This document shows, one piece after another, positions 5,134 to 35,481 of a stretch of DNA of 64,000 nt. A program made the translations under genes and the position numbers. Position 1 is the stretch's first letter. Each line of letters opens with the position of its first letter. Source of the DNA: Candidatus Omnitrophota bacterium (GTDB lineage: Bacteria; Omnitrophota; Gorgyraeia; Zapsychrales; Fredricksoniimonadaceae); contig JBGAJA010000001.1 of the NCBI GenBank assembly GCA_044225175.1, forward strand, positions 134,994 through 198,993, written 5' to 3'. The notes below the pieces were generated by a model. The model was not told the DNA's origin, did not search any database, and worked only from the letters and a program-made list of their open reading frames with translations.

Positions 5134-8009
5134 CAGATTACCACGCAAAATATTTTGCCTATGAGCTCACTAAACGGTGCGCATCCGATAGTTTAGAGAA
5201 GCTATCAGCAACTCTTTCTAATGCTCAGGTCGATTTAAATCCTCACCAAATTGAAGCCGCGCTTTTTGCCTTTCGTTCACCTCTCTCTAAAGGAGCTATT
5301 CTTGCTGATGAAGTTGGTTTAGGTAAAACAATTGAAGCTGGTATTGTTATTTCCCAAAAGTGGGCAGAGCGGCAGAGAAAGATTCTGATCATTGTTCCAG
5401 CGAATTTAAGAAAACAATGGAATGAAGAATTGTTGGATAAGTTTTTTATCCCGTCGATTATTCTTGAAAAGAAATCGTTCAATGAAGAAATCAAGAAAGG
5501 AAATTTAAATCCTTTAAACCAAAAGGATTTGGTTGTTATTTGTTCCTATCATTTTGCTAAATCCAAAGATGTTTATATTAAACAGGCTGGATTCGATTTA
5601 GTGATCATCGATGAAGCGCATCGTTTACGAAATGTTTATAAGGAATCGAATAAAATTGCCAACGCGATTAAAAATTGTTTGAAAGACTTTCCCAAAATTC
5701 TTTTAACCGCAACACCGCTTCAAAACTCGCTTGTTGAGCTTTATGGTTTAGTCAGCATTGTTGATGAGCAGGTCTTTGGTGATTTAGAAAGTTTCAAAGC
5801 ACAATATTGCCATAGTGAACCTCCGAATTATGCAGAATTAAAGGAGCGAATCAAGCCAGTATGTCTTCGGACGCTAAGAAGGCAAGTGTTGGAATATATC
5901 AAGTACACCAATCGTATTGCTATTACCCAAGAATTTTATCCCAAAAAAGAAGAGCAGGATTTGTATAACCTTGTTACCGATTATCTTCAACGAGACAGAC
6001 TTTATGCTCTTCCCAAAGCTCAACGACACTTGATGACGTTGATATTAAGAAAGCTTTTAGCATCGTCCACCTATGCTATTGCTGGCACATTATTGGGTTT
6101 AGCTCGCAAATTAGAATTTCTACTTAAGAATCAGGATAGGCCAGAGGTTGTCGAGGAAATCTTGGCTCAAGATTATGAAACCTATGAGGAAACCAAGGAT
6201 GAATGGCTTGATGATGAAGAAGGTGATGAAGATGAGAAGGATGAAGCTCCACAAACAAAATTAACCGAAGAGGATATTAACAATATTAATGAAGAAATCG
6301 GCTTATTGAAACAAATGCATGAATTAGCGAAATCGATACATAAGAACTCTAAAGGAGAGGTCTTATTAAAAGCTTTGCAGAAAGGGTTTGAAGAAGCTCA
6401 GAATAAGGGAGCATTAAAGAAAGCCATTATTTTTACAGAATCTACCCGAACACAAAGCTATATCCTTGAAATTTTAAGTCAAACGGAATATACGGGCAAG
6501 ATTGTCCTTTTTAATGGAAACAATAATAGTCCGCATGCGAGAGAGATTCTTAAGAAATGGACAGAACGGAATAAAGATACAGATCGAATCACCGATTCTT
6601 CAACTGCCAATATGAGAGCGGCCTTGGTTGATTATTTTCGTAATGAAGGTGTCATTATGATTGCGACTGAAGCTGCCGCTGAGGGCATCAATCTTCAATT
6701 TTGCTCTTTAATTGTTAATTATGACCTTCCTTGGAATCCACAACGCATCGAACAGCGCATAGGCCGCTGTCACCGATATGGCCAAAAGCACGATGTTGTT
6801 GTAGTTAATTTTCTCAATAAAAAGAACGCCGCAGATGTTCGGGTTTATGAATTATTGGAAAAGAAATTCCAGCTTTTTAGCGGTGTATTCGGGGCCAGTG
6901 ATGAAGTCTTAGGCGCTTTGGAGTCCGGTGTTGATTTCGAACGCCGTATTGCCGAGATTTATCAAAATTGCCGAACTGAAGCACAGATTCAAATCTCATT
7001 TGACCAGCTTCAAAAAGATTTGGAAGAAAATATATCAGAGAAAATCACCCAAACAAAACAACGTCTTTTGGAAAGTTTTGATGAGGAAGTTGCTGAAAAA
7101 CTAAGAATAAATTCGATTAAGAGTAATGAGTACAAAGACAAATATGAAAAGTGGCTTTGGGATTTAACGCAATATTTTTTACAACCTTACGCAAAGTTTG
7201 ACCAAGATAATTATTCTTTTGTGCTCGTCGATAATCCATTCCCATCTGAAAAAATTGATCCAGGCCCATACAGAATTGGCAAAAATGTTGATGATGCGCA
7301 TGTTTATAGGGTGGGTCATCCCTTAGCGCAGAAAGTCATTAGCCAATTTAAAAGCAAAGAATTGCCAGCAGTGGAAGTGTGCTTTGACTATGAGAATTCT
7401 GGAAAAAAAATTTCGATATTAGAAGGATTGATTAGCAAGGCGGGATGGCTTACTGTTTATAACTTCACAATCCAGTCTTTTGAAGAAGAGGATCATGTTG
7501 TGTTATGTGGTTTAACTGATGACGGGCAGGAGCTTAATGCAGATCAATGCCGAAGATTATTTTCACTTCCCGGTAGTGTGATAGCTGAAGCGATAACGCC
7601 GGACGGAATTAACAAAAGGATTGCTGAAATTGTGGGCAAACGAAAAGCAATGATTCTGGACACCAATATGCACCGCAACTCAGGATTTTTTGATAAGGAA
7701 ATAGATAAGCTTGACAAGTGGGCAGAAGATAAACGCAATTCATTAAAGCTATCTTTAAAAGATCTTGATGAAGAGATTAAAGAGTTAAAAAAGACAGCTA
7801 AACAAGCGCAGAGTTTGCCTGATAAGTTAGCCGCACAAAAGAAAGTAAAAGCATTAGAGAAAAAGCGAGATGAAGCATGGCGTGAGTACGATGCTACAGG
7901 TCGAAAGATTGAAGAAGAAAAAGATAAGCTTATAGAAACAATTGAACAAAAACTTTCTGCTAAAGAATGCTTAGGGGAAGTTTTTTCAATCCGCTGGAAG
8001 GTTGTTTGA
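5127..8009 (+). CDS. SNF2-family (SF2) ATPase/helicase with C-terminal coiled-coil domain
   Basis: Walker A GLGKT, DEAH box (DEAHRLRN), LLTATPLQN (SNF2 motif III), helicase C motifs (QRIGRCHRYGQ). About 300 aa non-helicase C-terminal extension with coiled coil. Overlaps the radC stop. Confidence 0.8.
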   Translation: MLTDYHAKYFAYELTKRCASDSLEKLSATLSNAQVDLNPHQIEAALFAFRSPLSKGAILADEVGLGKTIEAGIVISQKWAERQRKILIIVPANLRKQWNEELLDKFFIPSIILEKKSFNEEIKKGNLNPLNQKDLVVICSYHFAKSKDVYIKQAGFDLVIIDEAHRLRNVYKESNKIANAIKNCLKDFPKILLTATPLQNSLVELYGLVSIVDEQVFGDLESFKAQYCHSEPPNYAELKERIKPVCLRTLRRQVLEYIKYTNRIAITQEFYPKKEEQDLYNLVTDYLQRDRLYALPKAQRHLMTLILRKLLASSTYAIAGTLLGLARKLEFLLKNQDRPEVVEEILAQDYETYEETKDEWLDDEEGDEDEKDEAPQTKLTEEDINNINEEIGLLKQMHELAKSIHKNSKGEVLLKALQKGFEEAQNKGALKKAIIFTESTRTQSYILEILSQTEYTGKIVLFNGNNNSPHAREILKKWTERNKDTDRITDSSTANMRAALVDYFRNEGVIMIATEAAAEGINLQFCSLIVNYDLPWNPQRIEQRIGRCHRYGQKHDVVVVNFLNKKNAADVRVYELLEKKFQLFSGVFGASDEVLGALESGVDFERRIAEIYQNCRTEAQIQISFDQLQKDLEENISEKITQTKQRLLESFDEEVAEKLRINSIKSNEYKDKYEKWLWDLTQYFLQPYAKFDQDNYSFVLVDNPFPSEKIDPGPYRIGKNVDDAHVYRVGHPLAQKVISQFKSKELPAVEVCFDYENSGKKISILEGLISKAGWLTVYNFTIQSFEEEDHVVLCGLTDDGQELNADQCRRLFSLPGSVIAEAITPDGINKRIAEIVGKRKAMILDTNMHRNSGFFDKEIDKLDKWAEDKRNSLKLSLKDLDEEIKELKKTAKQAQSLPDKLAAQKKVKALEKKRDEAWREYDATGRKIEEEKDKLIETIEQKLSAKECLGEVFSIRWKVV

Positions 8010-23663: not shown

Positions 23664-24308
23664 ATGATGAATAAAAACCGTATAGAGGCCTTAAGTGACG
23701 CGGTATTTGCCGTTGCGATGACGATCCTTGTCATTGACATCAAGGTGCCGCCGTTAGCAGGGCCAGCCAACGGTTATGAGTTGATAGAACAGTTATGGAA
23801 GATGTGGCCGCTGTTTCGCAGTTATTACATCAGTTTTGCGATTTTGGGGATGTACTGGATTGCTCACCACACACTTTTTCATTATTTTGCCAAACATGCC
23901 AATAGACCGCTGACCTATTTAAATATATTATTTTTGTGTCTCATCACCTTGATTCCTTTTTCCACTCATTTGATTGGGGAGTATCCGATCAATACGGTGG
24001 CGGTCGCTATTTATGGGGTCAATGTCATTGTTATCGGCACTGTACAATATTGGATGTTTCGTCTGACAATTAAAGATCCGCAGGCGCTTCACGAGGGGAT
24101 ACCCCCACAGATGCTTATGCATTCAAACGTAAGTATGCTGATGCCTCCAGCCTTTGCGGTGCTCGGTATCATTGCCGGGTTTTACCATTCTTCAGTCAGC
24201 TTTTTCTTATTCGCATTTCCCGTGGTATTTAATATTATCCCAGGCAGTTTAGGTTTTATTGAACGTTTCTTTTTAAAAAGAGCCGCTAATCAGGAAAGAA
24301 ATAATTAA
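23664..24308 (+). CDS. TMEM175/DUF1211-family membrane protein (putative K+ channel), paralog 1
   Basis: N-terminal RIEALSDAVFAVAMTILV signature of DUF1211. Six predicted TM helices. Confidence 0.6.
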   Translation: MMNKNRIEALSDAVFAVAMTILVIDIKVPPLAGPANGYELIEQLWKMWPLFRSYYISFAILGMYWIAHHTLFHYFAKHANRPLTYLNILFLCLITLIPFSTHLIGEYPINTVAVAIYGVNVIVIGTVQYWMFRLTIKDPQALHEGIPPQMLMHSNVSMLMPPAFAVLGIIAGFYHSSVSFFLFAFPVVFNIIPGSLGFIERFFLKRAANQERNN

Positions 24309-24311
24309 GAT

Positions 24312-26165
24312 ATGACATTTCTTAGGGTCGATAAGGAAATTTATATTGCTTTCTTAGCCATCCTTGGGATTAGTCTATATTTATTTTTCCATTTCTTTTT
24401 AGGTGTTCCCAAAGATATAGCCAATTGGCCATTGTGGATCACTCTTTTTCTAGGCGGGATCCCGTTGGTTTGGGATCTTTTGCTTAAACTTTCCAAACGT
24501 CAATTCGGTTCTGATCTTTTAGCCGGGATTTCAATTATTACCTCTGTTTTATTGGGTGAATATTTAGCTGGAACCCTGGTGGTTTTAATGCTTTCCGGCG
24601 GGGAGGCTTTAGAAAGTTTTGCTGTGCGACGCGCCTCATCGGTGTTAGCTGCATTAGCCAAACGTATGCCGAATAAAGCACACCGTAAAAGCGCGGGAGC
24701 TGTGATTGATATTACAATTGATCAGATCAATATCGGTGATGAGTTGGTCATTTTTCCACATGAGATTTGTCCAGTTGATGGTCAAGTAATTGAAGGTCAT
24801 GGTGCCATGGATGAATCGTATTTAACTGGAGAGCCGTTTATTATTTCAAAGGTGGCTGGATCAAATGTTCTTTCCGGTGCTATTAATGGTGAAGCTTCTC
24901 TGACGATTGCTGCAACAAAACGCGCGATGGATTCACGCTATGCCAAAATTATGGAAGTCATGCGTGCAGCTGAAGAGAAACGTCCGAGTATTCAACGTTT
25001 AGGCGATCAACTAGGCGCGATCTATACGCCGGTGGCCTTAATATTGGCGATTGGTGCTTGGATTTTTAGCCATGATCCCATGAGGTTCTTATCAGTTTTA
25101 GTTATTGCGACACCTTGCCCATTGTTGATTGCCATTCCGGTTGCTGTTATAGGATCAATTTCTTTGAGTGCCCGTCGTGGGATTATCATCCGAAATCCAG
25201 CAATTCTTGAACAAATTGACCGCTGCCGCACCATTATCTTAGATAAGACAGGGACATTGACCTATGGGAGGCCGACTGTTACGGAAGTCAATTGTTTCAA
25301 TGGTTTTGATAAGTCCAAAGTGTTGAAATATGCATCAAGTTTAGAACAGTATTCCAAACATCCTTTAGCGCATTCAATTGTTGAGGCAGCCCAAAAGGCA
25401 GGTGCTGGTTTTATAGAAGTAGGCCAAATCAGTGAGGCAGCAGGGGAAGGTTTACGAGGCGTTGTTGATGGGCATACAGTTTTAATCACCAGTCGCGGTA
25501 AATTGATTAAACAAGGTAAGGAGTCATGGTTTAAGGATATTCCACAAATGGGCGGTTTGGAATGTGTACTCGTCATTGACAATAAAATGGCTGGGCACTT
25601 TCATTTTCACGATGAACCTCGTTTAGAGGGGAAATCGTTTATTAAACATTTAAGCCCTCGGCATAAAATCAATCGAGTCATGATTGTTTCTGGTGACCGT
25701 GAGAGTGAAGTGAAATATTTGGCTGATAAAGTAGGCATTGATATGGTTTATGCTGGTAAAAGCCCCGAGGAGAAAATCGAGATTGTTCGTAAGGAAACTC
25801 TTTCTGGGCCGACTATTTATTTGGGTGACGGCATCAATGATGCGCCTGCACTTACCGCCGCGACGGTCGGAATTGCATTCGGCCAAAATAGTGATATTAC
25901 TGCGGAAGCCGCTGGGGCTGTGATCATGGAGAGTTCCTTAGCCAAGGTGGATGAGTTAATGCATATTAGCCGTAGGATGAGGACAATTGCACTTCAGAGC
26001 GCGCTGGGAGGGATGGCCTTGTCAATTTTTGGAATGTTGCTGGCAGCTGGGGGACATTTGACACCTGTAGCGGGTGCCATAGGTCAGGAAATTATTGATG
26101 TCATTGCTGTTCTTAATGCTTTACGCGCAGCTTTTCCTCCTAAAGACCTGACGGATTTTGCTTAA
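24312..26165 (+). CDS. P1B-type heavy-metal translocating P-type ATPase (no N-terminal metal-binding domain)
   Basis: CPx motif (ATPCPL) in TM6, DKTGTLT phosphorylation site, GDGINDAPAL hinge motif. Confidence 0.8.
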   Translation: MTFLRVDKEIYIAFLAILGISLYLFFHFFLGVPKDIANWPLWITLFLGGIPLVWDLLLKLSKRQFGSDLLAGISIITSVLLGEYLAGTLVVLMLSGGEALESFAVRRASSVLAALAKRMPNKAHRKSAGAVIDITIDQINIGDELVIFPHEICPVDGQVIEGHGAMDESYLTGEPFIISKVAGSNVLSGAINGEASLTIAATKRAMDSRYAKIMEVMRAAEEKRPSIQRLGDQLGAIYTPVALILAIGAWIFSHDPMRFLSVLVIATPCPLLIAIPVAVIGSISLSARRGIIIRNPAILEQIDRCRTIILDKTGTLTYGRPTVTEVNCFNGFDKSKVLKYASSLEQYSKHPLAHSIVEAAQKAGAGFIEVGQISEAAGEGLRGVVDGHTVLITSRGKLIKQGKESWFKDIPQMGGLECVLVIDNKMAGHFHFHDEPRLEGKSFIKHLSPRHKINRVMIVSGDRESEVKYLADKVGIDMVYAGKSPEEKIEIVRKETLSGPTIYLGDGINDAPALTAATVGIAFGQNSDITAEAAGAVIMESSLAKVDELMHISRRMRTIALQSALGGMALSIFGMLLAAGGHLTPVAGAIGQEIIDVIAVLNALRAAFPPKDLTDFA

Positions 26166-26496
26166 ATCTTAAAGAATGCTATCTGGTCCAAGATTCAATA
26201 TTAAAATTTCTTTATAATTGCTTTAAACTTCATGATTTGCTTCACTTATTCCCAAAGAATCAATTGAAAAAATCCATATACAAAAAGATAATCTATTGGA
26301 ATTTATCGTCGATAAACCACAGATTTTTCCTTTAACCTGTTTGACTCTATTTTAACCACTTTTGCGTAAAAGTGGACACTTTTTGGACACCAAATGGTTT
26401 CTAAATTTCATATTAGATATCTAGAACCTTGTTGCTCTTTTATTTTTATTTGATAGTATAAATTTGGGTCTGGAGAATTTTTCCAGAGGGTGTTTT

Positions 26497-26543
26497 GATG
26501 GTCGGGCCGCCATCTGATTGAAAAATCAGATGGCTTTTTTTTT
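26497..26543 (+). promoter_or_regulatory. Conserved leader element, copy 1. GATGG-N8-CCATC competes with an 11 bp hairpin GCCATCTGATT/AATCAGATGGC followed by a 9-T run; candidate attenuator immediately upstream of the nhaD-like start
   Basis: Shares the GATGGTCGGGCCGCCATCTGRTTGAAAAAYCAG core with copy 2 at 29428. The stem differs by a compensatory change (A-T to G-C). The U-tract abuts the RBS. Confidence 0.4.
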
Positions 26544-26556
26544 GGAAAGGAAGTGT

Positions 26557-27831
26557 ATGTTTGAAGCTTTGATTGTGAGTGTATTCTTGTTTGGATATGC
26601 GGCAATGGCGTTTGAACATAAGATTGGGGTTAATAAGGCTGCTTCGGCACTTTTAACAGCAGTTGTTTGCTGGGTTCTTTTGGCTTTGCAACATATGAAT
26701 CTTTCTAGTGGGAATGGTCATCAAATTGTAGAAAGTTTATCCCATCATTTAGAGGAGGCTGCGCAGATTGTTTTCTTCCTAATTGGAGCTATGACTATTG
26801 TGCAGTTAATGGAAACGCATGGAGGATTTCAGGTTGTTACAAAAATGCTTCAGATCAAGAATAAGAAACTGCTTTTGTGGGTGATTTCTTTGATCACTTT
26901 TTTTCTTTCACCTGTTTTAGATAATTTAACAACATCAATTGTTATGGTTTCGCTGATGCATCGTTTAATAAGCGATAAAGATGATCGTCTTATTTTTAGC
27001 AGTATGGTTATTATTGCTGCTAATGCGGGAGGCGCTTGGTCGCCGATTGGTGATGTGACAACAACAATGCTGTGGATTGGAGGGCAGGTAAGCGCTTTAA
27101 GGATCGTGCAGATGCTTTTTGTCCCAAGCTTGATTGCTATGCTTATACCCTTAATATATTTTACTTTGATGATGAAAAAAGGAGAGGTTTTGAAGTTTGC
27201 TCCTTTTGCTGATGAATGGCAGGTTGGTACCAAAAGAGTGTTCTATTTAGGATTATGTGCGCTCATTTTTGTTCCAATTTTTAAGGCGGTTACAGGCCTT
27301 CCCCCATTTATTGGGGTGCTTTTGGGGCTGGGTTTGGTATGGATGGTGACTGACCTTATTCATAATGAAGATAGGGATTACTTAAAAGTTCCAAAAGCAT
27401 TAAATAAGATTGATATGTCAAGCATACTATTCTTTCTTGCTATTTTATTAGCTGTGGCTGCTCTGGATACTTGCGGGGCTTTAAAGAGTATGGCTATATG
27501 GATGGATCGGACAATCATTAATAAAGATCTTATTGCAACTACACTGGGGCTTTTATCTGCAATTATAGACAATGTTCCGTTAACTGCGGCGACGATGGGG
27601 ATGTATGATTTAACACATTATCCGATGGATTCAAAATTATGGGAACTTTTAGCTTTTACTGTTGGAACGGGAGGAAGTGTCCTCATTATAGGGTCAGCGG
27701 CAGGTGTTGTGGTGATGGGGATTGAGAAGATAAGTTTTCTTTGGTATCTAAAAAAGGTGTCATTGCCCGTTTTATTAGGTTATTTTGCTGGCGTTGGTGC
27801 GTATTTATTAATTTATCGAATTATTGCTTAA
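26557..27831 (+). CDS. ArsB/NhaD-superfamily ion permease (NhaD-like Na+/H+ antiporter)
   Basis: Polytopic membrane protein with the PF03600-like repeated topology. ORF-track start 26518 (TTG) lies inside the leader hairpin. The ATG at 26557 with GGAAAGGAAG upstream is the more likely start. Confidence 0.55.
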   Translation: MFEALIVSVFLFGYAAMAFEHKIGVNKAASALLTAVVCWVLLALQHMNLSSGNGHQIVESLSHHLEEAAQIVFFLIGAMTIVQLMETHGGFQVVTKMLQIKNKKLLLWVISLITFFLSPVLDNLTTSIVMVSLMHRLISDKDDRLIFSSMVIIAANAGGAWSPIGDVTTTMLWIGGQVSALRIVQMLFVPSLIAMLIPLIYFTLMMKKGEVLKFAPFADEWQVGTKRVFYLGLCALIFVPIFKAVTGLPPFIGVLLGLGLVWMVTDLIHNEDRDYLKVPKALNKIDMSSILFFLAILLAVAALDTCGALKSMAIWMDRTIINKDLIATTLGLLSAIIDNVPLTAATMGMYDLTHYPMDSKLWELLAFTVGTGGSVLIIGSAAGVVVMGIEKISFLWYLKKVSLPVLLGYFAGVGAYLLIYRIIA

Positions 27832-27853
27832 ATAACTTTCAGGTGGAGTTGCT

Positions 27854-28687
27854 TTGAAAATAAATAAAAGCTTACCAATTAAGTTAATAAGCGCAACAAG
27901 CATAGCCATTGCGATTTGTTTTATTGTTCAACCTTCTTTTCTAGTTATGGCTCAACCAATTTTCTTATCATTAGAGGAAATTGAGCAAATCGGAGTTAAG
28001 GTTTTTAAAAATGAATGTGCAGGTAAAAATGAATGTCTTTTGGAGTGGAATGAAGGAGAGGGTTTTCTCTCTTTAGGGATAGGGCATTTTATTTGGTATC
28101 CTCAAGGAGTTACAGAACCTTTTGAAGAGAGTTTTCCAGTCCTGATTAAATATTTAAAAGAAAAGGGAATAAAACTTCCAGCCTGGCTAGATCAAGAACC
28201 TTTTCCAACATGTCCGTGGATAACAAGAGAAGATTTCATAAAGAACAAATCTGGTTTTAAAGCACAGGAACTATATAAATTATTAAGCGAGACTAAGTCA
28301 TTGCAAAGCGCTTTTTTAGTATCACGTTTGGATGTGATTTTATCTTTAATATTAGAAAACGTTGATGATAGGGATGATTTTAGAATTAAGAATAAATTTA
28401 AAAGACTTGCCAGTACTCCTCAAGGAATTTTTGTATTGGTCGATTATGCTAATTTTAAAGGTCTAGGGATTTCTTTAGGTGAGCGTTATCAAGAGCAGGG
28501 TTGGGGGCTTGTACAGGTTTTATCTAGAATGAAAGATGATGAACAAGAATTAAATCCTGTCGAAGAATTTGTAAAAGAGGCTCAAAAAATTTTGACAGAA
28601 CGTGTTAATAATGCTCCTGTAGGAAGGCAGGAGCAAAAATGGTTGCTTGGTTGGCAAAACAGGGTTAATTCGTATTTAAAAGAATAA
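27854..28687 (+). CDS. secreted hypothetical protein (signal peptide)
   Basis: N-terminal hydrophobic signal, then MAQP. No recognised family. Confidence 0.4.
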   Translation: MKINKSLPIKLISATSIAIAICFIVQPSFLVMAQPIFLSLEEIEQIGVKVFKNECAGKNECLLEWNEGEGFLSLGIGHFIWYPQGVTEPFEESFPVLIKYLKEKGIKLPAWLDQEPFPTCPWITREDFIKNKSGFKAQELYKLLSETKSLQSAFLVSRLDVILSLILENVDDRDDFRIKNKFKRLASTPQGIFVLVDYANFKGLGISLGERYQEQGWGLVQVLSRMKDDEQELNPVEEFVKEAQKILTERVNNAPVGRQEQKWLLGWQNRVNSYLKE

Positions 28688-28756
28688 TTAGCAATCAAAT
28701 TTATTTTTAATGGGAAATCTAAATTGACAAGAACGTTCTTTTATATATACTCGTGA

Positions 28757-28772
28757 GTAAGCATTTGCTTAC
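28757..28772 (+). promoter_or_regulatory. Perfect palindrome GTAAGCA-TT-TGCTTAC, candidate TetR operator overlapping the tetR promoter
   Basis: 16 bp inverted repeat 20 nt upstream of the tetR-family start. TetR regulators commonly autoregulate via such operators. Confidence 0.35.
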
Positions 28773-28793
28773 ATTTATTTGATAGAGGACAGA

Positions 28794-29387
28794 ATGTCAA
28801 AATTAAGAACTGTTCGTCAACAAAAGATAATTGATGCGTCACGTAGAATTATTATTCTTAAGGGGATGGAAAAGTTAACCGTAAGAGAGATTGCTAAAGA
28901 GCTCGGAATCACGGACGGGGCTTTATACAGACATTTTAAGGGAAAAAAACAAATTATAAGTCTTTTAATTGATGATATTGAAGAAACTCTATTAAGTGCA
29001 ATTGATGAAGCAGCTTCAACAACAGAGAATCCTTTAAAAAAGTTGGAAAATGTATTCTGGTCTCATCTTTCTTATGTAGAAAAACGTAAAGGAGTTTCGT
29101 TTATTGTTATTAACAATATTCTGGGTATGAAAGATAAATATCTTCAAAACAAAATTTATAGCCTTATTAATCAATATTTAAAAAGAATAAAGAAAATTTT
29201 AAACGAAGGAATTAAAAAAGGTCTTTTTCGAAAGAGTCTGGATATTGAGGCAGCCAGTACAGCATTTTTTGGAATCATTCAATCTAAAGTAACGCTCTGG
29301 GGATTGAGCGATTATAAATATTCAATAGGAAATGAACATATGGCAGGGTCATTTGATTTTTTTGAGAAAGGAATTCTAGCAAAATAA
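28794..29387 (+). CDS. TetR/AcrR-family transcriptional regulator
   Basis: N-terminal HTH (LTVREIAKELGITDGALYRHF). ATG at 28794 with a GAGGA SD is preferred over the track's TTG at 28779. Confidence 0.75.
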   Translation: MSKLRTVRQQKIIDASRRIIILKGMEKLTVREIAKELGITDGALYRHFKGKKQIISLLIDDIEETLLSAIDEAASTTENPLKKLENVFWSHLSYVEKRKGVSFIVINNILGMKDKYLQNKIYSLINQYLKRIKKILNEGIKKGLFRKSLDIEAASTAFFGIIQSKVTLWGLSDYKYSIGNEHMAGSFDFFEKGILAK

Positions 29388-29427
29388 TTTAATAAAGGGT
29401 CCATAAGGTTTGCCTTATGGAGGATTA

Positions 29428-29474
29428 GATGGTCGGGCCGCCATCTGGTTGAAAAACCAGGGGGTGGCCTTTTT
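29428..29474 (+). promoter_or_regulatory. Conserved leader element, copy 2 (GATGG...CCATC, hairpin CCATCTGGTT/AACCAGGGGGTGG, then TTTTT), 22 nt upstream of the otsA start
   Basis: See copy 1. Hairpin plus U-tract sits between the tetR stop and the otsA RBS, leaving no room for an independent promoter. Confidence 0.4.
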
Positions 29475-29495: not shown

Positions 29496-31742
29496 ATGAA
29501 GATAACTCTACGTTTAATTTTATATTTAGTATCTATAGTTGCTTTAGTAGCTTTTGGGTTTTCATTTTGGCAGGCACGTCAGGAAGATTTCCGTCTCAGG
29601 AATGAATTAGAAAAAAGAGCTAATTTTATTGCTGATAGTTTGAGGGTTTCAGTTGAACCATTATTATCTATTGAAGGAGGAAATCAGAGTCTACAGAAGA
29701 TTGTAGATAGATTTTCTAATCGTGAAAAATTGGTTGGTATTGATATACATGACATTAGAGGAAATTTGATTGTTTCCTCTTCAGGAATTCGACCTAAGAT
29801 TGAAGCTAATTCTCAAGTTTTATCTGAAGTGATTCAAGAGATTGAACGGCTAGGCTCTGAGCGAGGTAGTTTTGTTAATCTTGGTAAAGAATCTTTATAT
29901 GCCTATGCAGTACCTTTAACCACAGCAGAGAAACCAACCCATGTTTTAACTCTCTTTTATGATGTTGATTATATTCAAGATCGAGTACAGAGACTTTTAA
30001 TTAATAGTTTTTGGAGAGCGTTGATACAGGCTTTTTTAATATCATTGACGACATTTATTATTATTTATTTTAATGTCATGGCACCTATTAGAAAAACGAC
30101 AGATTGGATTAAAAGAATCCGTAGAGGAGATAGAGTTAAGCCATTAGATGGAAAAGGGCAGCTGCTATTAGGTCCTTTGGCACAAGAAATTTCTCAAATG
30201 GCTAAGAGTTTAGAAATGGCCAGGGCTGCAGCTGAAGAAGAAGCTCGGTTAAGATATTCATCTGAGTCTCGATGGACTCCAGAGCGATTAAAAGAATTTG
30301 TTCGTTTGAAATTGGAGGATCGTCCGCTTTTTGTGGTTTCTAATCGGGAACCCTATATGCATATTAAAAATAAAGACAAAATTGAATGTATTGTTCCAGC
30401 TAGTGGGCTGGTTACTGCTTTGGAACCTATACTTAATGCCTGTGGTGGAACCTGGATTGCTCAAGGAAGTGGAAGCGGGGATCGAGAAACTGTCGATAAA
30501 AATGACAGGTTAAGAGTTCCTCCAGAAGAACCAAAATATACCTTACGGCGGGTTTGGGTGGATAAAGATTTAGAAGAAGGTTTCTATTCTGGATTTTCTA
30601 ATGAAGGTCTTTGGCCTCTATGTCATATTGCTCATACCAGGCCCATTTTTAGAGCCAAAGATTGGGAAGATTACAAAGCTGTTAACCAGAAATTTGCTCA
30701 GGCAGTTGCCCAAGAGATCGATGGAATATCAAATCCGTTTGTTTTAATTCAAGATTACCACTTTGCTCTTTTACCTGGTTTGATCAAAAAACTCAAAGCC
30801 GATGCAAAGATAGCAATATTCTGGCACATTCCCTGGCCTAATCCTGAATCATTTGGTATATGTCCCTGGCGAAAAGAGCTTCTGCAAGGAATGTTAGGGG
30901 CTGACATTATTGGCTTTCATACACAGTTTCACTGTAATAATTTTATTGAGTCTGTTGATAGATTTTTGGAGTCCCGTATTGATTATGAGCATTTTACAAT
31001 CAATCGTGAAGGACATACAACATTCATAAAACCATTCCCTATTAGTATTAATTTTGAATCAGCCAATGAAAGTGCTACTAAAGCAGAAGAGAGCAAGGCA
31101 GCGCTTTTAAAGAGCTATGGTATTCAAGCTAAATTCTTGGGGGTGGGTGTCGATCGTTTGGATTATACGAAGGGTATTTTGGAAAGATTTCGTGCGGTTG
31201 AAAGTTTGATGGAGCTTGATCAATCATACATAGGAAAATTTACTTTTGTAGAACTTGGTGCCCCTAGTCGAACTATGATTCCTAAGTATAAAGAATTTAT
31301 CGATGAAATAGTCAAAGAAGTTGAACGGATTAATACAAAATTTAAGACAAAAAATTGGCAGCCGATTCTTTTGTTGATGAAGCACCATAGTCATAAGGAT
31401 ATTTTACCTTTTTATAAAGCAGCAGATGTGTGCATGGTTACTTCTTTACACGATGGAATGAATTTAGTAGCTAAAGAGTTCATTTCTGCTCGCAGCGATG
31501 AACAGGGTGTTTTAATTCTGAGTCAGTTTACTGGTGCTGCTAGAGAATTGCAGGATGCTTTAATTGTCAATCCTTACGACGTAGGCCAGACATCACGAGC
31601 CATCAAATGTGCTTTGGAAATGCCAAAAGAAGATCAAGCAAAGCGCATGAAACAAATGAGAGAAATAGTTAAAAGTAATAATATTTATCGATGGGCAGGA
31701 GAATTAGTTGGCCAATTGACACAAGTTCGTACAGAGAGTTAG
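29496..31742 (+). CDS. otsA: membrane-anchored sensor-domain/HAMP-like linker fused to trehalose-6-phosphate synthase (GT20, OtsA)
   Basis: Residues 1-260: TM helix, about 150 aa extracytoplasmic domain, second TM, HAMP-like amphipathic linker. Residues about 270-748: GT20 OtsA core (VVSNREPY..., GFFLHIPWP-like motifs). Confidence 0.8.
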   Translation: MKITLRLILYLVSIVALVAFGFSFWQARQEDFRLRNELEKRANFIADSLRVSVEPLLSIEGGNQSLQKIVDRFSNREKLVGIDIHDIRGNLIVSSSGIRPKIEANSQVLSEVIQEIERLGSERGSFVNLGKESLYAYAVPLTTAEKPTHVLTLFYDVDYIQDRVQRLLINSFWRALIQAFLISLTTFIIIYFNVMAPIRKTTDWIKRIRRGDRVKPLDGKGQLLLGPLAQEISQMAKSLEMARAAAEEEARLRYSSESRWTPERLKEFVRLKLEDRPLFVVSNREPYMHIKNKDKIECIVPASGLVTALEPILNACGGTWIAQGSGSGDRETVDKNDRLRVPPEEPKYTLRRVWVDKDLEEGFYSGFSNEGLWPLCHIAHTRPIFRAKDWEDYKAVNQKFAQAVAQEIDGISNPFVLIQDYHFALLPGLIKKLKADAKIAIFWHIPWPNPESFGICPWRKELLQGMLGADIIGFHTQFHCNNFIESVDRFLESRIDYEHFTINREGHTTFIKPFPISINFESANESATKAEESKAALLKSYGIQAKFLGVGVDRLDYTKGILERFRAVESLMELDQSYIGKFTFVELGAPSRTMIPKYKEFIDEIVKEVERINTKFKTKNWQPILLLMKHHSHKDILPFYKAADVCMVTSLHDGMNLVAKEFISARSDEQGVLILSQFTGAARELQDALIVNPYDVGQTSRAIKCALEMPKEDQAKRMKQMREIVKSNNIYRWAGELVGQLTQVRTES

Positions 31743-31751
31743 GAGGGTATT

Positions 31752-32846
31752 ATGACAAACTTAATTGAAAATTTAAGAATAATTCAGGGAACGGTTATTT
31801 TTAAGAATACGATACAGGATTATTGCGTTGCATTGGTCGCCTTTTTAATTTTATTTTATGGTCTATCTATCTTTAAAAGAATAATTGTTAAGCATCTAGG
31901 GAAATTGGCTTCTAAAACGAGTTCTGATTTTGATGACTTTATTGTCAGGCTGCTTTCTCAAATTGGTTGGCCTTCTTTTAGTGTTGTGTCGTTGTTTCTA
32001 GCTACCGCTTCTCTTGAAATGCCTTCAATGGTTCATTCAATGATTAAATATGTAATGGTTTTTGTTCTGACCATCCGATCCATTTTATTACTACAAGAAA
32101 TAATTCAGTATGGTGTTAATAAAACATTGCTTAGGCGTATGGGGGCTGATAATTCCTCATCCAAGGCGATGATTAATAGTGTTGTATGGGTCATCAAATG
32201 GGCAATATGGATATTAGGGGCTGTTTTCATTTTGGATAATTTGGGGGTCAATATATCTTCCTTAGTTGCTGGAATTGGAATCGGTGGTATTGCAGTTGCA
32301 ATGGCTTCTCAAGCTGTATTGGGGGATGCTTTTAGTGCACTATCCATTTATATGGATAGGCCATTTGAAATTGGTGATTTTATCATCATTGATGATTGTA
32401 TGGGTACTGTTGAGCATATTGGAGTTAAAACAACCCGTATCAGAAGTCTTTCGGGGGAACAGTTAGTTCTTTCGAATTCAGATTTAACAAAGAGCCGTGT
32501 TAAAAATTATAAACGCATGCAAACACGACGTATTGCCTTCAAGATTGGTGTTACTTATCAAACTTCTCTGGAAAAGGTCGAAAGAATTCCACAAATAATT
32601 AAGGGTTTATTAGAGAAAGCTGAAGTCAAAATAGACCGCGTGCATTTTCAGAGTTTTGGAGATTTTTCTCTTGTTTATGAGATTGTCTACTATGTTTTAA
32701 GTGCGGATTACAACGTTTATATGGATAAGCAGCAGGCTATTAATCTTGCTATTATGCAAGAGTTTGAGCGCGAGGGAATTGAATTTGCATATCCGACCCA
32801 GACTCTTTTTATAAGAAATGAAATGGCAAATAATCTATCGAGGTGA
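31752..32846 (+). CDS. MscS-family mechanosensitive channel
   Basis: Conserved TM3/pore region LVAGIGIGGIAVAMASQAVLGDAFSALSIYMDRPFEIGDFI and a beta-domain C-terminus. Confidence 0.8.
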   Translation: MTNLIENLRIIQGTVIFKNTIQDYCVALVAFLILFYGLSIFKRIIVKHLGKLASKTSSDFDDFIVRLLSQIGWPSFSVVSLFLATASLEMPSMVHSMIKYVMVFVLTIRSILLLQEIIQYGVNKTLLRRMGADNSSSKAMINSVVWVIKWAIWILGAVFILDNLGVNISSLVAGIGIGGIAVAMASQAVLGDAFSALSIYMDRPFEIGDFIIIDDCMGTVEHIGVKTTRIRSLSGEQLVLSNSDLTKSRVKNYKRMQTRRIAFKIGVTYQTSLEKVERIPQIIKGLLEKAEVKIDRVHFQSFGDFSLVYEIVYYVLSADYNVYMDKQQAINLAIMQEFEREGIEFAYPTQTLFIRNEMANNLSR

Positions 32847-33648
32847 AAATTGGATAATGGAACATCTTTTTAAAAAATTAGATACATTAAAAAAACAATT
32901 ACATAAGAGTCAAGCTGCACTTTTTCTAGATTACGATGGCACTTTAACTCCGATTGTTGAGAGGCCTGAGTTAGCCATTCTTTCTTCTAAAACAAAGAAC
33001 CAATTAAAGAAATTAGCTAAAAACGAACGGTTTAAAGTTTTTATTATTAGTGGAAGAGCTTTAGCTGATGTAAAAAGGTTGGTTGGTGTTAGTAATATTG
33101 AATACGTAGGTAATCATGGCTTTGAAATTCAAGGGGCAGATTTAGATTTTGGGGATTTTTCTTTTTTGCGATTTAGAGAAATCTTGGAATATTTAAAATG
33201 GGAGATTACCAAAGAACTTGTCTTTTTTAAAGGAGCTTTTGTAGAGGATAAGGGTCTTGGTTTAAGTGTGCACTATCGTTTGCTTAATTTGAAGGATGAA
33301 TCAATTTTTAATACTTTTCTTAAGGTTATTACTCGTGAATTTTCTTCAAGAGGTGAAATTCGAATTACTCAAGGTAAAAAAGTATTTGAAATTCAAGCGC
33401 CATTGGATTGGGATAAAGGTAAAGCAGTCGCTTTGATTCTTAAAAATAAAGAATTAATCCATGGAAAACATAAAGTCCTTCCGATTTATATAGGGGATGA
33501 TGTTACAGATGAAGATGCTTTTTCAGTTTTGAAAAATACCGGGATTACAGTTTTTGTAGGTGAGTTGAGGCCGTCTCAGGCGCAATATTACTTAAATAAT
33601 GCTAATGAAGTTGTCGAATTCTTAAAATATATAAATGAGGTTAAATAA
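32818..33648 (+). CDS. otsB: trehalose-6-phosphate phosphatase (HAD-IIB)
   Basis: DYDGTL motif (LFLDYDGTLTPIV), HAD motifs II-IV, GDDVTDEDAF. Alternative start ATG at 32857. Confidence 0.8.
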   Translation: MKWQIIYRGENWIMEHLFKKLDTLKKQLHKSQAALFLDYDGTLTPIVERPELAILSSKTKNQLKKLAKNERFKVFIISGRALADVKRLVGVSNIEYVGNHGFEIQGADLDFGDFSFLRFREILEYLKWEITKELVFFKGAFVEDKGLGLSVHYRLLNLKDESIFNTFLKVITREFSSRGEIRITQGKKVFEIQAPLDWDKGKAVALILKNKELIHGKHKVLPIYIGDDVTDEDAFSVLKNTGITVFVGELRPSQAQYYLNNANEVVEFLKYINEVK

Positions 33649-35481
33649 ATGAAACAATTAAAGAATCTTAACTATGCCATTATTGGTAATTGCACGAGCG
33701 CTGCCTTGATTAATGATGATTGTTCGATAGATTGGCTATGTCTACCTTTTTTCGATTCTTCTTCCATATTTGCTCGAATTCTTGACGACCAAAAAGGAGG
33801 ATATTTTAAAATAGGGGCTAAAGACATTATCAGTGTTGAACAGACTTATTTGTATCATACGCCTATTTTGAAAACGGTCTTTACGACCAAGGATGGCATA
33901 TTTGAGGTGCGTGATTATATGCCTCGATTTGATACTAATGATGTTCAGATTTATTGTCCAGCTGAGATCCACCGAAGTATTTATTTAGTTCAAGGTAGTC
34001 CGAAGGTGCTTATTGAATTTAATCCGAGGCCTAATTATGGCTTAAGTGAAGCAAAATTGACGCCTTTTCCTGAGTATTTAAAAATTACATCTTTAGAAGG
34101 AGAATATAATAGTTACTATCTTTACACAAATTTCAATATGAGTGATCTTGTTGATGGTAAAGAAATTGAACTTAAAGAGTCCGCTTATTTTCTTTTGTCC
34201 TATCATGAAAAAATTGAACCAATAACCAAAGAGAGAATGTTTTTGGAGTACGAGAAAACAAAGAGTTATTGGCTGTATTGGGCTTATCGAACGGAAGTTC
34301 CTGAAAAGTACAAGGAATTGGTAATTCGCTCTATTATTACGCTCAAACTTCTCATGTTTCAGCGAACTGGAGCAGTCATTGCAGCGCCAACTACCTCTTT
34401 GCCAGAAATCATAGGGAAAGAACGTAATTGGGACTACCGTTACTGCTGGGTGAGAGATGCGTCTATGATTATTGATTTGTTTGCCCGTATGGGGCATTCC
34501 AAAACTTCTTTAAGATATATTAATTTTATTCTTAACCGAATGCGGCTTAAAGATTACAAAATATCTGTTATGTATGGAATTAATGGGGAAGAGAATTTGG
34601 AGGAAAGAACCCTTGATCATTTAAGTGGGTATGAAGGTTCCCTTCCGGTACGAATAGGTAATGCTGCTTACAATCAGAAACAAAATGATGTCTATGGGCA
34701 ATTAATTGAGACAATTTACACTTCATTTGTGGTTGATTTTAGAAATGATTTAATATTGAATGAAGAAACCTGGACAGTGGTTCGCTCATTAGCAAAGAAA
34801 GTGCAAGAAATATGGAAAGAAGCTGATTGCGGTATATGGGAACGCCGGGGGCCAATGCAACACTTTGTACATTCTAAATTAATGAGTTGGGTTGCCATGG
34901 ATCGTGCAGCTAAGATTGCTAAATTTATCGGTAAAAAACAATATGTTGCTAAGTATTTATCAGTAGCTAATGAAATCAAGGAAGATATTCTTAAGAACGG
35001 ATGGGATGAAGAGTTAAAAAGTTTTGTGATGTATTATGGGTCTAAAGAATTGGATGCATCTAATCTTTTGATGCTTCATTATGGTTTTTTAGATAAGAGT
35101 GATCCGCGTATCATCAATACAGTGCTTAATACGTATAAAGAACTAGCTAAAGATGGTCTTATCTTACGTTATAAAGCTGCTGATGAATTTGGGGTCCCTC
35201 AAAATGCATTTATTGTATGCACCTTCTGGATGATTAATTCTTTGTATCTTATTGGAAAAGAAAAGGAAGCTCGCATAATGCTTGAGAAAATTGTATCTCA
35301 TGCCAACAGAGTTGGGCTTTTTTCTGAAGATATCGAAACAGATACTGGGCGTTTAACTGGCAATTTTCCCCAAGGGTACTCACACCTAGCTTTTATCCAA
35401 ACAGTCTTTTTGTTAGAAACACAGTATGATTGGAGTGATGCAGTTAAATCTGGGCGTTCTTTATTTAAAGCTCCTGATTAA
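33649..35481 (+). CDS. GH15-family glycoside hydrolase (glucoamylase/trehalase-like)
   Basis: WDYRYCWVRDAS (GH15 WxRD motif) and GIWERRG (catalytic acid region). Start abuts the otsB stop. Confidence 0.8.
   Translation: MKQLKNLNYAIIGNCTSAALINDDCSIDWLCLPFFDSSSIFARILDDQKGGYFKIGAKDIISVEQTYLYHTPILKTVFTTKDGIFEVRDYMPRFDTNDVQIYCPAEIHRSIYLVQGSPKVLIEFNPRPNYGLSEAKLTPFPEYLKITSLEGEYNSYYLYTNFNMSDLVDGKEIELKESAYFLLSYHEKIEPITKERMFLEYEKTKSYWLYWAYRTEVPEKYKELVIRSIITLKLLMFQRTGAVIAAPTTSLPEIIGKERNWDYRYCWVRDASMIIDLFARMGHSKTSLRYINFILNRMRLKDYKISVMYGINGEENLEERTLDHLSGYEGSLPVRIGNAAYNQKQNDVYGQLIETIYTSFVVDFRNDLILNEETWTVVRSLAKKVQEIWKEADCGIWERRGPMQHFVHSKLMSWVAMDRAAKIAKFIGKKQYVAKYLSVANEIKEDILKNGWDEELKSFVMYYGSKELDASNLLMLHYGFLDKSDPRIINTVLNTYKELAKDGLILRYKAADEFGVPQNAFIVCTFWMINSLYLIGKEKEARIMLEKIVSHANRVGLFSEDIETDTGRLTGNFPQGYSHLAFIQTVFLLETQYDWSDAVKSGRSLFKAPD

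Follow-up and report, generated by a model that had tools for sequence, protein, structure and literature searches.

The stretch of DNA analyzed here, referred to below as the window, comprises 64,000 nucleotides (nt) of contig JBGAJA010000001.1 from a Candidatus Omnitrophota bacterium. Two related leader elements on its plus strand lie directly before genes with osmotic or sodium-related functions. Copy 1 precedes a gene for an NhaD-type Na+/H+ antiporter, and copy 2 precedes an operon that encodes an apparently membrane-anchored OtsA together with MscS, OtsB and a trehalase (Table 1). A first-pass annotation of this DNA had proposed that the elements are conditional terminators or attenuators of osmotic-stress genes. 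Both parts of this proposal agree with what is described below, where the elements are found to belong to the nhaA-I RNA family (Rfam RF03057, the Li+-I riboswitch class), with an aptamer helix and a terminator that are mutually exclusive.

Table 1. Features of the two nhaA-I leaders, the genes that follow them and the intervening region (window coordinates).
Feature	Position	Strand	Basis
nhaA-I aptamer, copy 1	26466..26515	+	Rfam RF03057, 49.4 bits
Intrinsic terminator, copy 1	26509..26543	+	Terminator scan and folding
nhaD-type Na+/H+ antiporter, 424 aa	26557..27831	+	Pfam CitMHS 1.4e-30; NCBIfam NhaD_1; TIGR00775
277-aa ORF between nhaD and tetR	27854..28687	+	No family match
Sigma-70-like promoter, TTGACA-16-TATACT	28724-28751	+	Promoter scan, 11/12 matches
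Perfect palindrome GTAAGCATTTGCTTAC, candidate TetR operator	28757-28772	+	Sequence
tetR-family regulator gene	28795..29387	+	Pfam TetR_N and TetR_C_4
nhaA-I aptamer, copy 2	29397..29446	+	Rfam RF03057, 48.2 bits
Intrinsic terminator, copy 2	29435..29474	+	Folding
Operon following copy 2, four genes	29496..35481	+	Pfam and NCBIfam
Sensor-like otsA fusion, 748 aa	29496-31742	+	Pfam GT20; NCBIfam OtsA
mscS	31752-32846	+	Pfam MscS
otsB	32818-33648	+	Pfam Trehalose_PPase; NCBIfam T6PP
GH15 trehalase-like gene	33649-35481	+	Pfam GH15 with TREH_N; NCBIfam TreH1-like
aa, amino acids; ORF, open reading frame.

The elements share a 33-nt core, GATGGTCGGGCCGCCATCTGRTTGAAAAAYCAG. Its two occurrences, 26497-26529 and 29428-29460, lie on the plus strand within the stretches named in the first-pass annotation, and the window has no other match when up to three mismatches are allowed. 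The core has no match in 100 dinucleotide-preserving shuffles, and a permissive Rfam scan (E<=0.5) likewise finds just these two copies in 64 kb. The copies differ at A26517/G29448 and T26526/C29457, positions that are mutual partners in the stem of a terminator, forming an A-U pair in copy 1 and a G-C pair in copy 2. This difference is a genuine compensatory change, as had been noted from the outset. A U-tract follows each stem, comprising T9 in copy 1 (26535-26543) and T5 in copy 2 (29470-29474), and ends 13-21 nt before the start codon (ATG 26557 and ATG 29496, respectively) with a ribosome-binding site (RBS) between. The RBS of nhaD, GGAAAGGAAG, comes directly after the U-tract of copy 1.

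The true 5' start of each element lies 31 nt upstream of the core, at 26466 and 29397, where GGGU, a hairpin and AGG are found. The first-pass annotation was correct for the 3' part of the elements and overlooked this shared 5' half because the hairpin sequences differ between the copies; nor did it recognize that the element belongs to a validated riboswitch class. The repeated elements are the 3' halves of two full riboswitches of the nhaA-I family, a class that is already known. The nhaA-I motif was first identified through comparative genomics (PMC5737381), and its members were later validated as the Li+-I riboswitch class, with selective 1:1 binding of Li+, a dissociation constant of ~20-30 mM and reporters that are activated by Li+ (PMC9646797). 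Rare terminator-bearing variants were described from Deltaproteobacteria; the one from D. propionicus responds to Na+, and the group was named Na+-II (PMC9646797). The commonest gene association of the family overall is nhaA, and Supplementary Table I of the same study lists otsA (16), nhaD (6), ‘citrate transporter’ (5) and mscS (3) among the genes downstream of nhaA-I RNAs (PMC9646797). The association of otsA, nhaD and mscS with this family is thus already published, and a routine Rfam scan detects both copies in the window.

The Rfam scan had been suggested as a check in the first-pass annotation. Its matches to RF03057 span model positions 1-55 of 55, exceed the gathering score of 37 in both copies, and are the sole such matches in the window. 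Copy 1 is composed of GGGU, a P1 hairpin (CUGGA.../...UCCAG), an AGG linker and a P2 hairpin (GAUGGU-CGGGCC-GCCAUC); copy 2 has the same arrangement, with CCAUAAGG/CCUUAUGG as the arms of P1. The sequence of P1 is wholly different between the copies (CUGGAG... compared with CCAUAAGG...) and its pairing is kept in both. The invariant nucleotides of the family (GGGU, AGG and the loop GGUCGGGCCGCC) are complete in each copy, and among them are the loop G residues at which mutations reduce Li+ binding in nhaA-I RNAs (PMC9646797). Both copies also lie in the same-strand 5' leader of cation-transport or related genes (nhaD; otsA-mscS-otsB). The consensus lower P1 (GGGUGC...GCAGG) and the U after AGG are absent from the window copies, which read GGGUCU...AGAGG-G (copy 1) and GGGUCC...GGAGG-A (copy 2) and still pass the RF03057 threshold; this departure from the consensus is a subtype difference. 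T-box and other Rfam families were rejected as the identity of the elements in scans of the window, and a weak SAM-III-like match within nhaD on the minus strand (21 bits, compared with a gathering score of 45) was dismissed as chance.

In each leader, the aptamer runs into an intrinsic terminator. The terminator of copy 1 has an 11-bp stem (GCCAUCUGAUU / AAUCAGAUGGC) with a GAAA loop at 26509-26534, then U9, and uses the 3' arm of P2 as its own 5' arm. In copy 2 the stem is interrupted and extends over ~15 bp (GGCCGCC-A-UCUGGUU / AACCAGG-G-GGUGGCC), again with a GAAA loop, followed by U5; its 5' arm is made from the P2 loop bases GGCC and the 3' arm of P2. Because the 5' arm of each terminator is built from the 3' arm of P2, the two structures are mutually exclusive. 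Overlap of this type, with the 5' arm of the terminator on the 3' side of P2, is a trait of Na+-II RNAs, and the architecture is that of the D. propionicus template. Folding of the full leaders gives minimum free energies of -28.5 kcal/mol for copy 1 and -39.1 kcal/mol for copy 2 (z = -5.4 for the latter), in both cases with P1 and the terminator formed and P2 absent. When the RNAs are cut at the end of P2, the resulting 51-nt molecules fold as P1 and P2 (-15.9 and -21.2 kcal/mol for copies 1 and 2). The alternative pairing of GATGG with CCATC that the first-pass annotation had pointed out is helix P2 of the aptamer.

These structures are consistent with a transcriptional ON switch. When ligand is absent, the terminator would fold behind the polymerase and transcription would halt at 26543 or 29474, before the start codon is reached. 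When a cation is bound, P1, the linker and P2 would be stabilized, keeping the CCAUC strand in P2 so that the terminator is unable to nucleate. The polymerase would then continue into nhaD (copy 1) or into the genes for sensor-OtsA, MscS, OtsB and trehalase (copy 2). Stabilized by the cation, P2 would act as the antiterminator; ligand binding and the direction of the switch are taken by analogy from tested members of the family, among them the D. propionicus variant, in which ligand raises read-through in vitro and which Na+ switches on in single-round transcription (PMC9646797). Considered jointly, membership of the nhaA-I family and antitermination as an ON switch are highly probable; this rating does not extend to the choice between Na+ and Li+. 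Compared with copy 1, copy 2 has a longer P2 (8 bp vs 6 bp), a stronger terminator and a shorter U-tract, and the two gates may differ in their threshold.

Homologues of the window OtsA with 68-91% identity were found in metagenome-assembled genomes of Omnitrophota, and nine related loci (L001-L009) were retrieved and scanned with Rfam. All nine contain the same otsA operon. The nhaA-I RNA is found above the gathering score before otsA in L001, L003, L004, L006, L007 and L009, and further copies lie ahead of nhaD (L001) and of a Na_H_Exchanger gene (L009); the Rfam scan gave no riboswitch match before otsA in L002 or L008. Across the ten aptamers of the window and these orthologous loci, the P2 sequence is common to all, and the sequences of P1 and of the distal stem of the terminator vary but remain paired. 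The order tetR-riboswitch-otsA recurs in L001 and L006. In L002, tetR abuts otsA across a 28-nt spacer (6972-7001) and no riboswitch is present, which suggests that the riboswitch was inserted into or lost from a tetR-otsA operon in different lineages. In L005, a cyclic di-AMP (c-di-AMP) riboswitch (RF00379, 53.6 bits; gathering score 38) lies at 6810-6954 before the orthologous sensor-otsA/otsB/GH15 operon, as if one riboswitch had been exchanged for another at a single regulatory position.

The distribution of the subtype was surveyed in metagenomes with the pattern GGGUYY...RRAGG...WGGUCGGGCCGCCW, which gave at least 120 loci, nearly all of them genuine aptamers. Counts from this survey are among the matches listed, which, pooled with the ten copies from the window and its orthologues, provided 110 unique aptamers that passed helix checks (107 of them metagenomic). 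Because the pattern itself selects for pairs 1-4 of P1 and pairs 1-5 of P2, these are uninformative for covariation. In a MAFFT alignment of 14 aptamers, the variable P1 arms were out of register; this alignment was left aside, and pair statistics were taken from end-anchored helices. On this basis, pairs 5-8 of P1 are canonical in 76-95% of aptamers, compared with 30-60% in a control in which the partner was slid by one, and up to six pair types occur per P1 position. The helices are thus backed by covariation across relatives, a check that had been proposed in the first pass: the pairing of P1 is kept in the ten Omnitrophota copies despite complete differences in sequence and is mostly canonical in the 110 aptamers, while loop and linker nucleotides are invariant in more than 100 divergent copies. 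The Rfam gathering score was reached by all 19 metagenome loci that were spot-checked, including tandem copies. The tandem aptamers are located at L174:1085-1291 (minus strand), L138:423-564 and L143:2552-3520, with those of L174 ~150 nt apart and each followed by its own terminator; they are in line with tandem copies that White et al. 2022 noted in environmental sequences (PMC9646797).

In 61/110 aptamers, a terminator begins within the P2 loop or its 3' arm (median 12 pairs, -20.8 kcal/mol). The first downstream ORFs were tallied by Pfam family for aptamers with and without a terminator. Where a terminator is present (49 ORFs), they include OtsA/GT20 (11), CitMHS/NhaD (5), SPFH (5), MscS (3) and DUF1646 (2); where there is none (40 ORFs), they include PF07399 antiporters (3), GT20 (2), SPFH (2), and single cases of Mrp, a Na/Ca exchanger, DUF1646 and MscS. 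NhaA (PF06965) is encoded by 0/89 of these ORFs among the matches listed. These findings suggest that terminator-type members with U before CGGGCC are common in metagenomes and have an osmotic-stress regulon without nhaA, and there is an indication that the subtype is abundant outside Proteobacteria. A separate scan of genome contigs with the loose pattern GGGTN{12,42}AGGN{4,14}RGYCGGGCCGCY yielded, among the matches listed, predominantly chance matches in GC-rich genomes; the sole real aptamer there was in L078 (Caballeronia), of GGGUGU type and located before nhaA.

Members that have no terminator carry two recurrent downstream sequences. The first is a conserved element of ~45 nt, UCCGAAGAACUGAAUUGCUUUGGCGCAAUGAAGCUUCGGAU, and the second is GCCACAGCG...GAGGCGUGGCGA..AUGG, found before ORFs of ~110-117 aa of unknown family. 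Loci with such sequences are L139, L143, L145, L187, L214, L221, L227 and L241, and also L140, L148, L171, L180, L233 and L244. Both are probably alternative expression platforms.

The ligand is expected to be a small alkali cation, by analogy with validated members of the family. Intracellular Na+, as it arises in salt stress, appears somewhat the likelier physiological trigger, with a cross-response to Li+ possible. Na+ is favored by the base of P1, the terminator platform, the osmotic-stress regulon, the substitution by a c-di-AMP riboswitch in L005, and the abundance of Na+; in nature, Li+ is normally orders of magnitude scarcer. In this respect, the P1 base GGGUCY...RGAGG matches GGGUCC...GGAGG of the D. 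propionicus RNA and not GGGUG(C/U)...(G/A)CAGG of the Li+-validated RNAs, and the terminator platform also resembles that of the Na+-responsive D. propionicus molecule. Whether otsA-associated copies sense Na+ in the osmotic response has been discussed previously and left open against Li+ (PMC9646797).

The same RNA family and the same antitermination could instead operate with strict selectivity for Li+, as in canonical Li+-I riboswitches, in which case NhaD would be induced to expel Li+ and trehalose metabolism would be adjusted to Li+ toxicity. We regard this, the main rival, as unlikely, though well short of negligible. The nucleotide before CGGGCC, which is the specificity position, is U in both copies (26502 and 29433); this is the Li+-I consensus, whereas the Na+-selective D. 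propionicus RNA has C at this position, its position 54 (mapped from the published wild-type and M4 templates as the nucleotide directly 5' of CGGGCC). The P2 loop is, furthermore, identical to that of the Li+-validated RNAs from P. monteilii, R. eutropha and A. caulinodans, and Li+ control of trehalose synthesis was deemed possible by the authors of that work (PMC9646797). However, the C54U mutant of the D. propionicus RNA (M4) responds to Li+ and also to both Na+ and NH4+ (PMC9646797), and therefore U alone does not confer Li+ selectivity in a terminator-type scaffold. Strict Li+ selectivity is also at odds with a P1 base that is unlike every Li+-validated member, with a regulon without nhaA among the matches listed in which compatible-solute, mechanosensitive-channel and Na+-transport genes dominate, with a riboswitch for c-di-AMP that substitutes before the orthologous otsA, and with the rarity of Li+ relative to Na+.

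From these observations, the large and mostly non-proteobacterial subtype (GGGUYY...RRAGG, U before CGGGCC, usually with a terminator) may be a physiological sensor of Na+ or salt stress rather than of Li+, a proposal that we put forward tentatively and rate as plausible rather than probable. Several points weigh against the readings developed here. The only nucleotide that has been tied to Na+ selectivity by experiment, C before CGGGCC, is the Li+-like U in the window. The survey pattern itself fixed U at this position and Y/R at the P1 base, and is blind to any association of genes with these nucleotides. The contrast in nhaA with the GGGUG type is based on four examples, the L078 aptamer and the three Li+-validated RNAs, which precede nhaA (PMC9646797). 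The downstream ORFs (n=89) were chosen by a crude rule, and many of the contigs are short. A promoter between the U-tract and the start codon is unlikely within a gap of 13-21 nt; the absence of room for a promoter, which the first-pass annotation had stressed, applies only to the gap between U-tract and RBS and not to transcription start upstream of the aptamers.

It could also be proposed that the elements are ligand-independent leader hairpins or terminators, or a duplicated leader, with any regulation provided by a protein (the neighboring TetR, for example, or an attenuation protein that binds RNA). Copy 2 does have a tetR gene and a candidate operator directly upstream, but the same aptamer precedes unrelated genes whether or not tetR is nearby, both copies pass Rfam's curated threshold for a validated class over the full length of the model, and the combination of covarying helices with invariant loop and linker nucleotides extends over more than 100 divergent copies; we consider this explanation very improbable. 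A dispersed repeat of the repetitive extragenic palindromic (REP) or mobile type with no positional logic, which the first-pass annotation had named as the outcome that would speak against it, has almost no remaining likelihood, since the GC-rich palindromic core repeated within an AT-rich genome has only two copies in 64 kb, both on the coding strand and directly 5' of genes, its position is conserved at orthologous loci of other genomes, and its gene associations are functionally coherent.

In profile searches, the antiporter encoded after copy 1 scores 152.8 bits against NCBIfam NhaD_1 (NF038006; cut-off 80) and 2.5e-119 against TIGR00775 NhaD. The 277-aa ORF after it, which is probably co-transcribed with nhaD, has no Pfam or NCBIfam match in profile searches; its N-terminus is hydrophobic, and L001, which is otherwise syntenic, lacks this ORF. 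OtsA is a fusion protein in which residues 4-251 have weak NCBIfam matches to the sensor parts of histidine kinases. Its N-terminal ~270 aa (29496-30330) contain a transmembrane segment, an extracytoplasmic domain of ~150 aa, a second transmembrane segment and a HAMP-like module, and the length of the fusion (745-760 aa) is kept in more than 100 homologues. This organization suggests a membrane-anchored and possibly signal-regulated trehalose-6-phosphate synthase.

Between the two leaders, the sigma-70-like promoter and the palindrome upstream of tetR are, judged from their sequence, a candidate autoregulatory operator/promoter for TetR. The tetR ORF opens at TTG 28779, with a likely start at ATG 28795 after an RBS (GAGGA), and its stop codon is 9 nt before aptamer 2; the C-terminal domain of the protein is YsiA/FadR-like. 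Co-transcription of tetR and otsA, with riboswitch 2 as a gate internal to the operon, is suggested because tetR abuts otsA without a riboswitch in L002. Copy 2 probably doubles as a conditional end of the tetR transcript. Its own transcription could be provided by read-through from the tetR promoter or by a weak promoter in the terminal part of tetR. AT-rich motifs that resemble -10 elements are present just upstream of both aptamers; a consensus promoter scan gave 15 sites compared with 13.1 expected in shuffled sequence, which is no excess. Immediately upstream of riboswitch 1 (23664-26165) there are genes for a TMEM175-like K+ channel and a heavy-metal P-type ATPase, followed by a terminator-like hairpin at 26356-26375. 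With these neighbors, the riboswitch genes sit within a wider ion-homeostasis neighborhood. Coding-strand bias over the 64 kb is unusually strong, with 43/44 ORFs of >=150 aa on the plus strand.

These results have consequences for annotation and for understanding of the family. Each of the two leaders can be labeled an nhaA-I riboswitch (Li+-I / Na+-II family) that has a terminator as its platform, and nhaD and the otsA operon are predicted to be cation-induced. The locus provides a natural test pair, in which a common aptamer core is combined with terminators of unequal strength before an antiporter gene and a compatible-solute operon, and it gives an initial glimpse of how Omnitrophota, an uncultured phylum, regulate their response to salt stress. 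Should the osmotic-stress regulon without nhaA be confirmed for the subtype, it would redraw the Li+/Na+ boundary within the family. If the subtype does sense Na+, specificity for this ion would not come from the change at C54 alone and would be set elsewhere, for example in the P1 base or linker. It would also mean that Omnitrophota have a master switch for a salt regulon that covers NhaD, trehalose synthesis and degradation, MscS, SPFH and DUF1646, and that a single gene cluster in the window is wired with two such gates, of which the second lies inside a tetR operon.

Comparison with known systems places the window copies within a group of riboswitches that act on related genes. The c-di-AMP riboswitch (ydaO/yuaA, RF00379) likewise controls osmotic-stress genes and, in L005, occupies the same place before the otsA operon, but it has an unrelated fold and ligand and is a genetic OFF switch. 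The Na+-I riboswitch (DUF1646 motif; PMC9337991) has a similar arrangement of two hairpins, is also an ON switch built on a terminator, has a regulon that overlaps (DUF1646, nhaD, osmolyte synthesis) and is functionally tied to c-di-AMP riboswitches. It differs in having a separate covariance model and distinct conserved nucleotides in the lower P1 and P2 loop, and a search with the DUF1646-motif model finds nothing at E<=0.5 across the whole window or, at the looser limit of E<=10, between 26100 and 29800.

Similarity is much closer to the Li+-I riboswitch (RF03057; PMC5737381, PMC9646797), which has the same GGGU, P1, AGG linker, P2 with loop UCGGGCCG and U before CGGGCC, and is likewise a genetic ON switch in the 5' leaders of cation-transport genes. 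Unlike this class, the window copies have C-G / Y-R at the P1 base in place of G-C / C-G, lack the conserved U after AGG, and use an intrinsic terminator as their platform, whereas masking of the RBS is the presumed mode of most Li+-I members. Their subtype has no association with nhaA (PF06965) among the matches listed, and their host belongs to Omnitrophota, while the published hosts are Alpha-, Beta-, Gamma- and Deltaproteobacteria together with environmental sequences (PMC9646797). The Na+-II riboswitch of D. propionicus shares with them the use of the P2 loop and 3' arm as the 5' arm of the terminator, the P1 base GGGUCC...GGAGG and a transcriptional ON switch. Its diagnostic C is replaced by U in the window, where the neighboring P2 pair is G-C rather than A-U. 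Published Na+-II RNAs come exclusively from Deltaproteobacteria and lie before genes whose function is unknown (PMC9646797), in contrast to the nhaD and otsA genes of Omnitrophota described here. With this combination of features, the window copies are nearly a natural counterpart of the C54U mutant (M4) published for this RNA.

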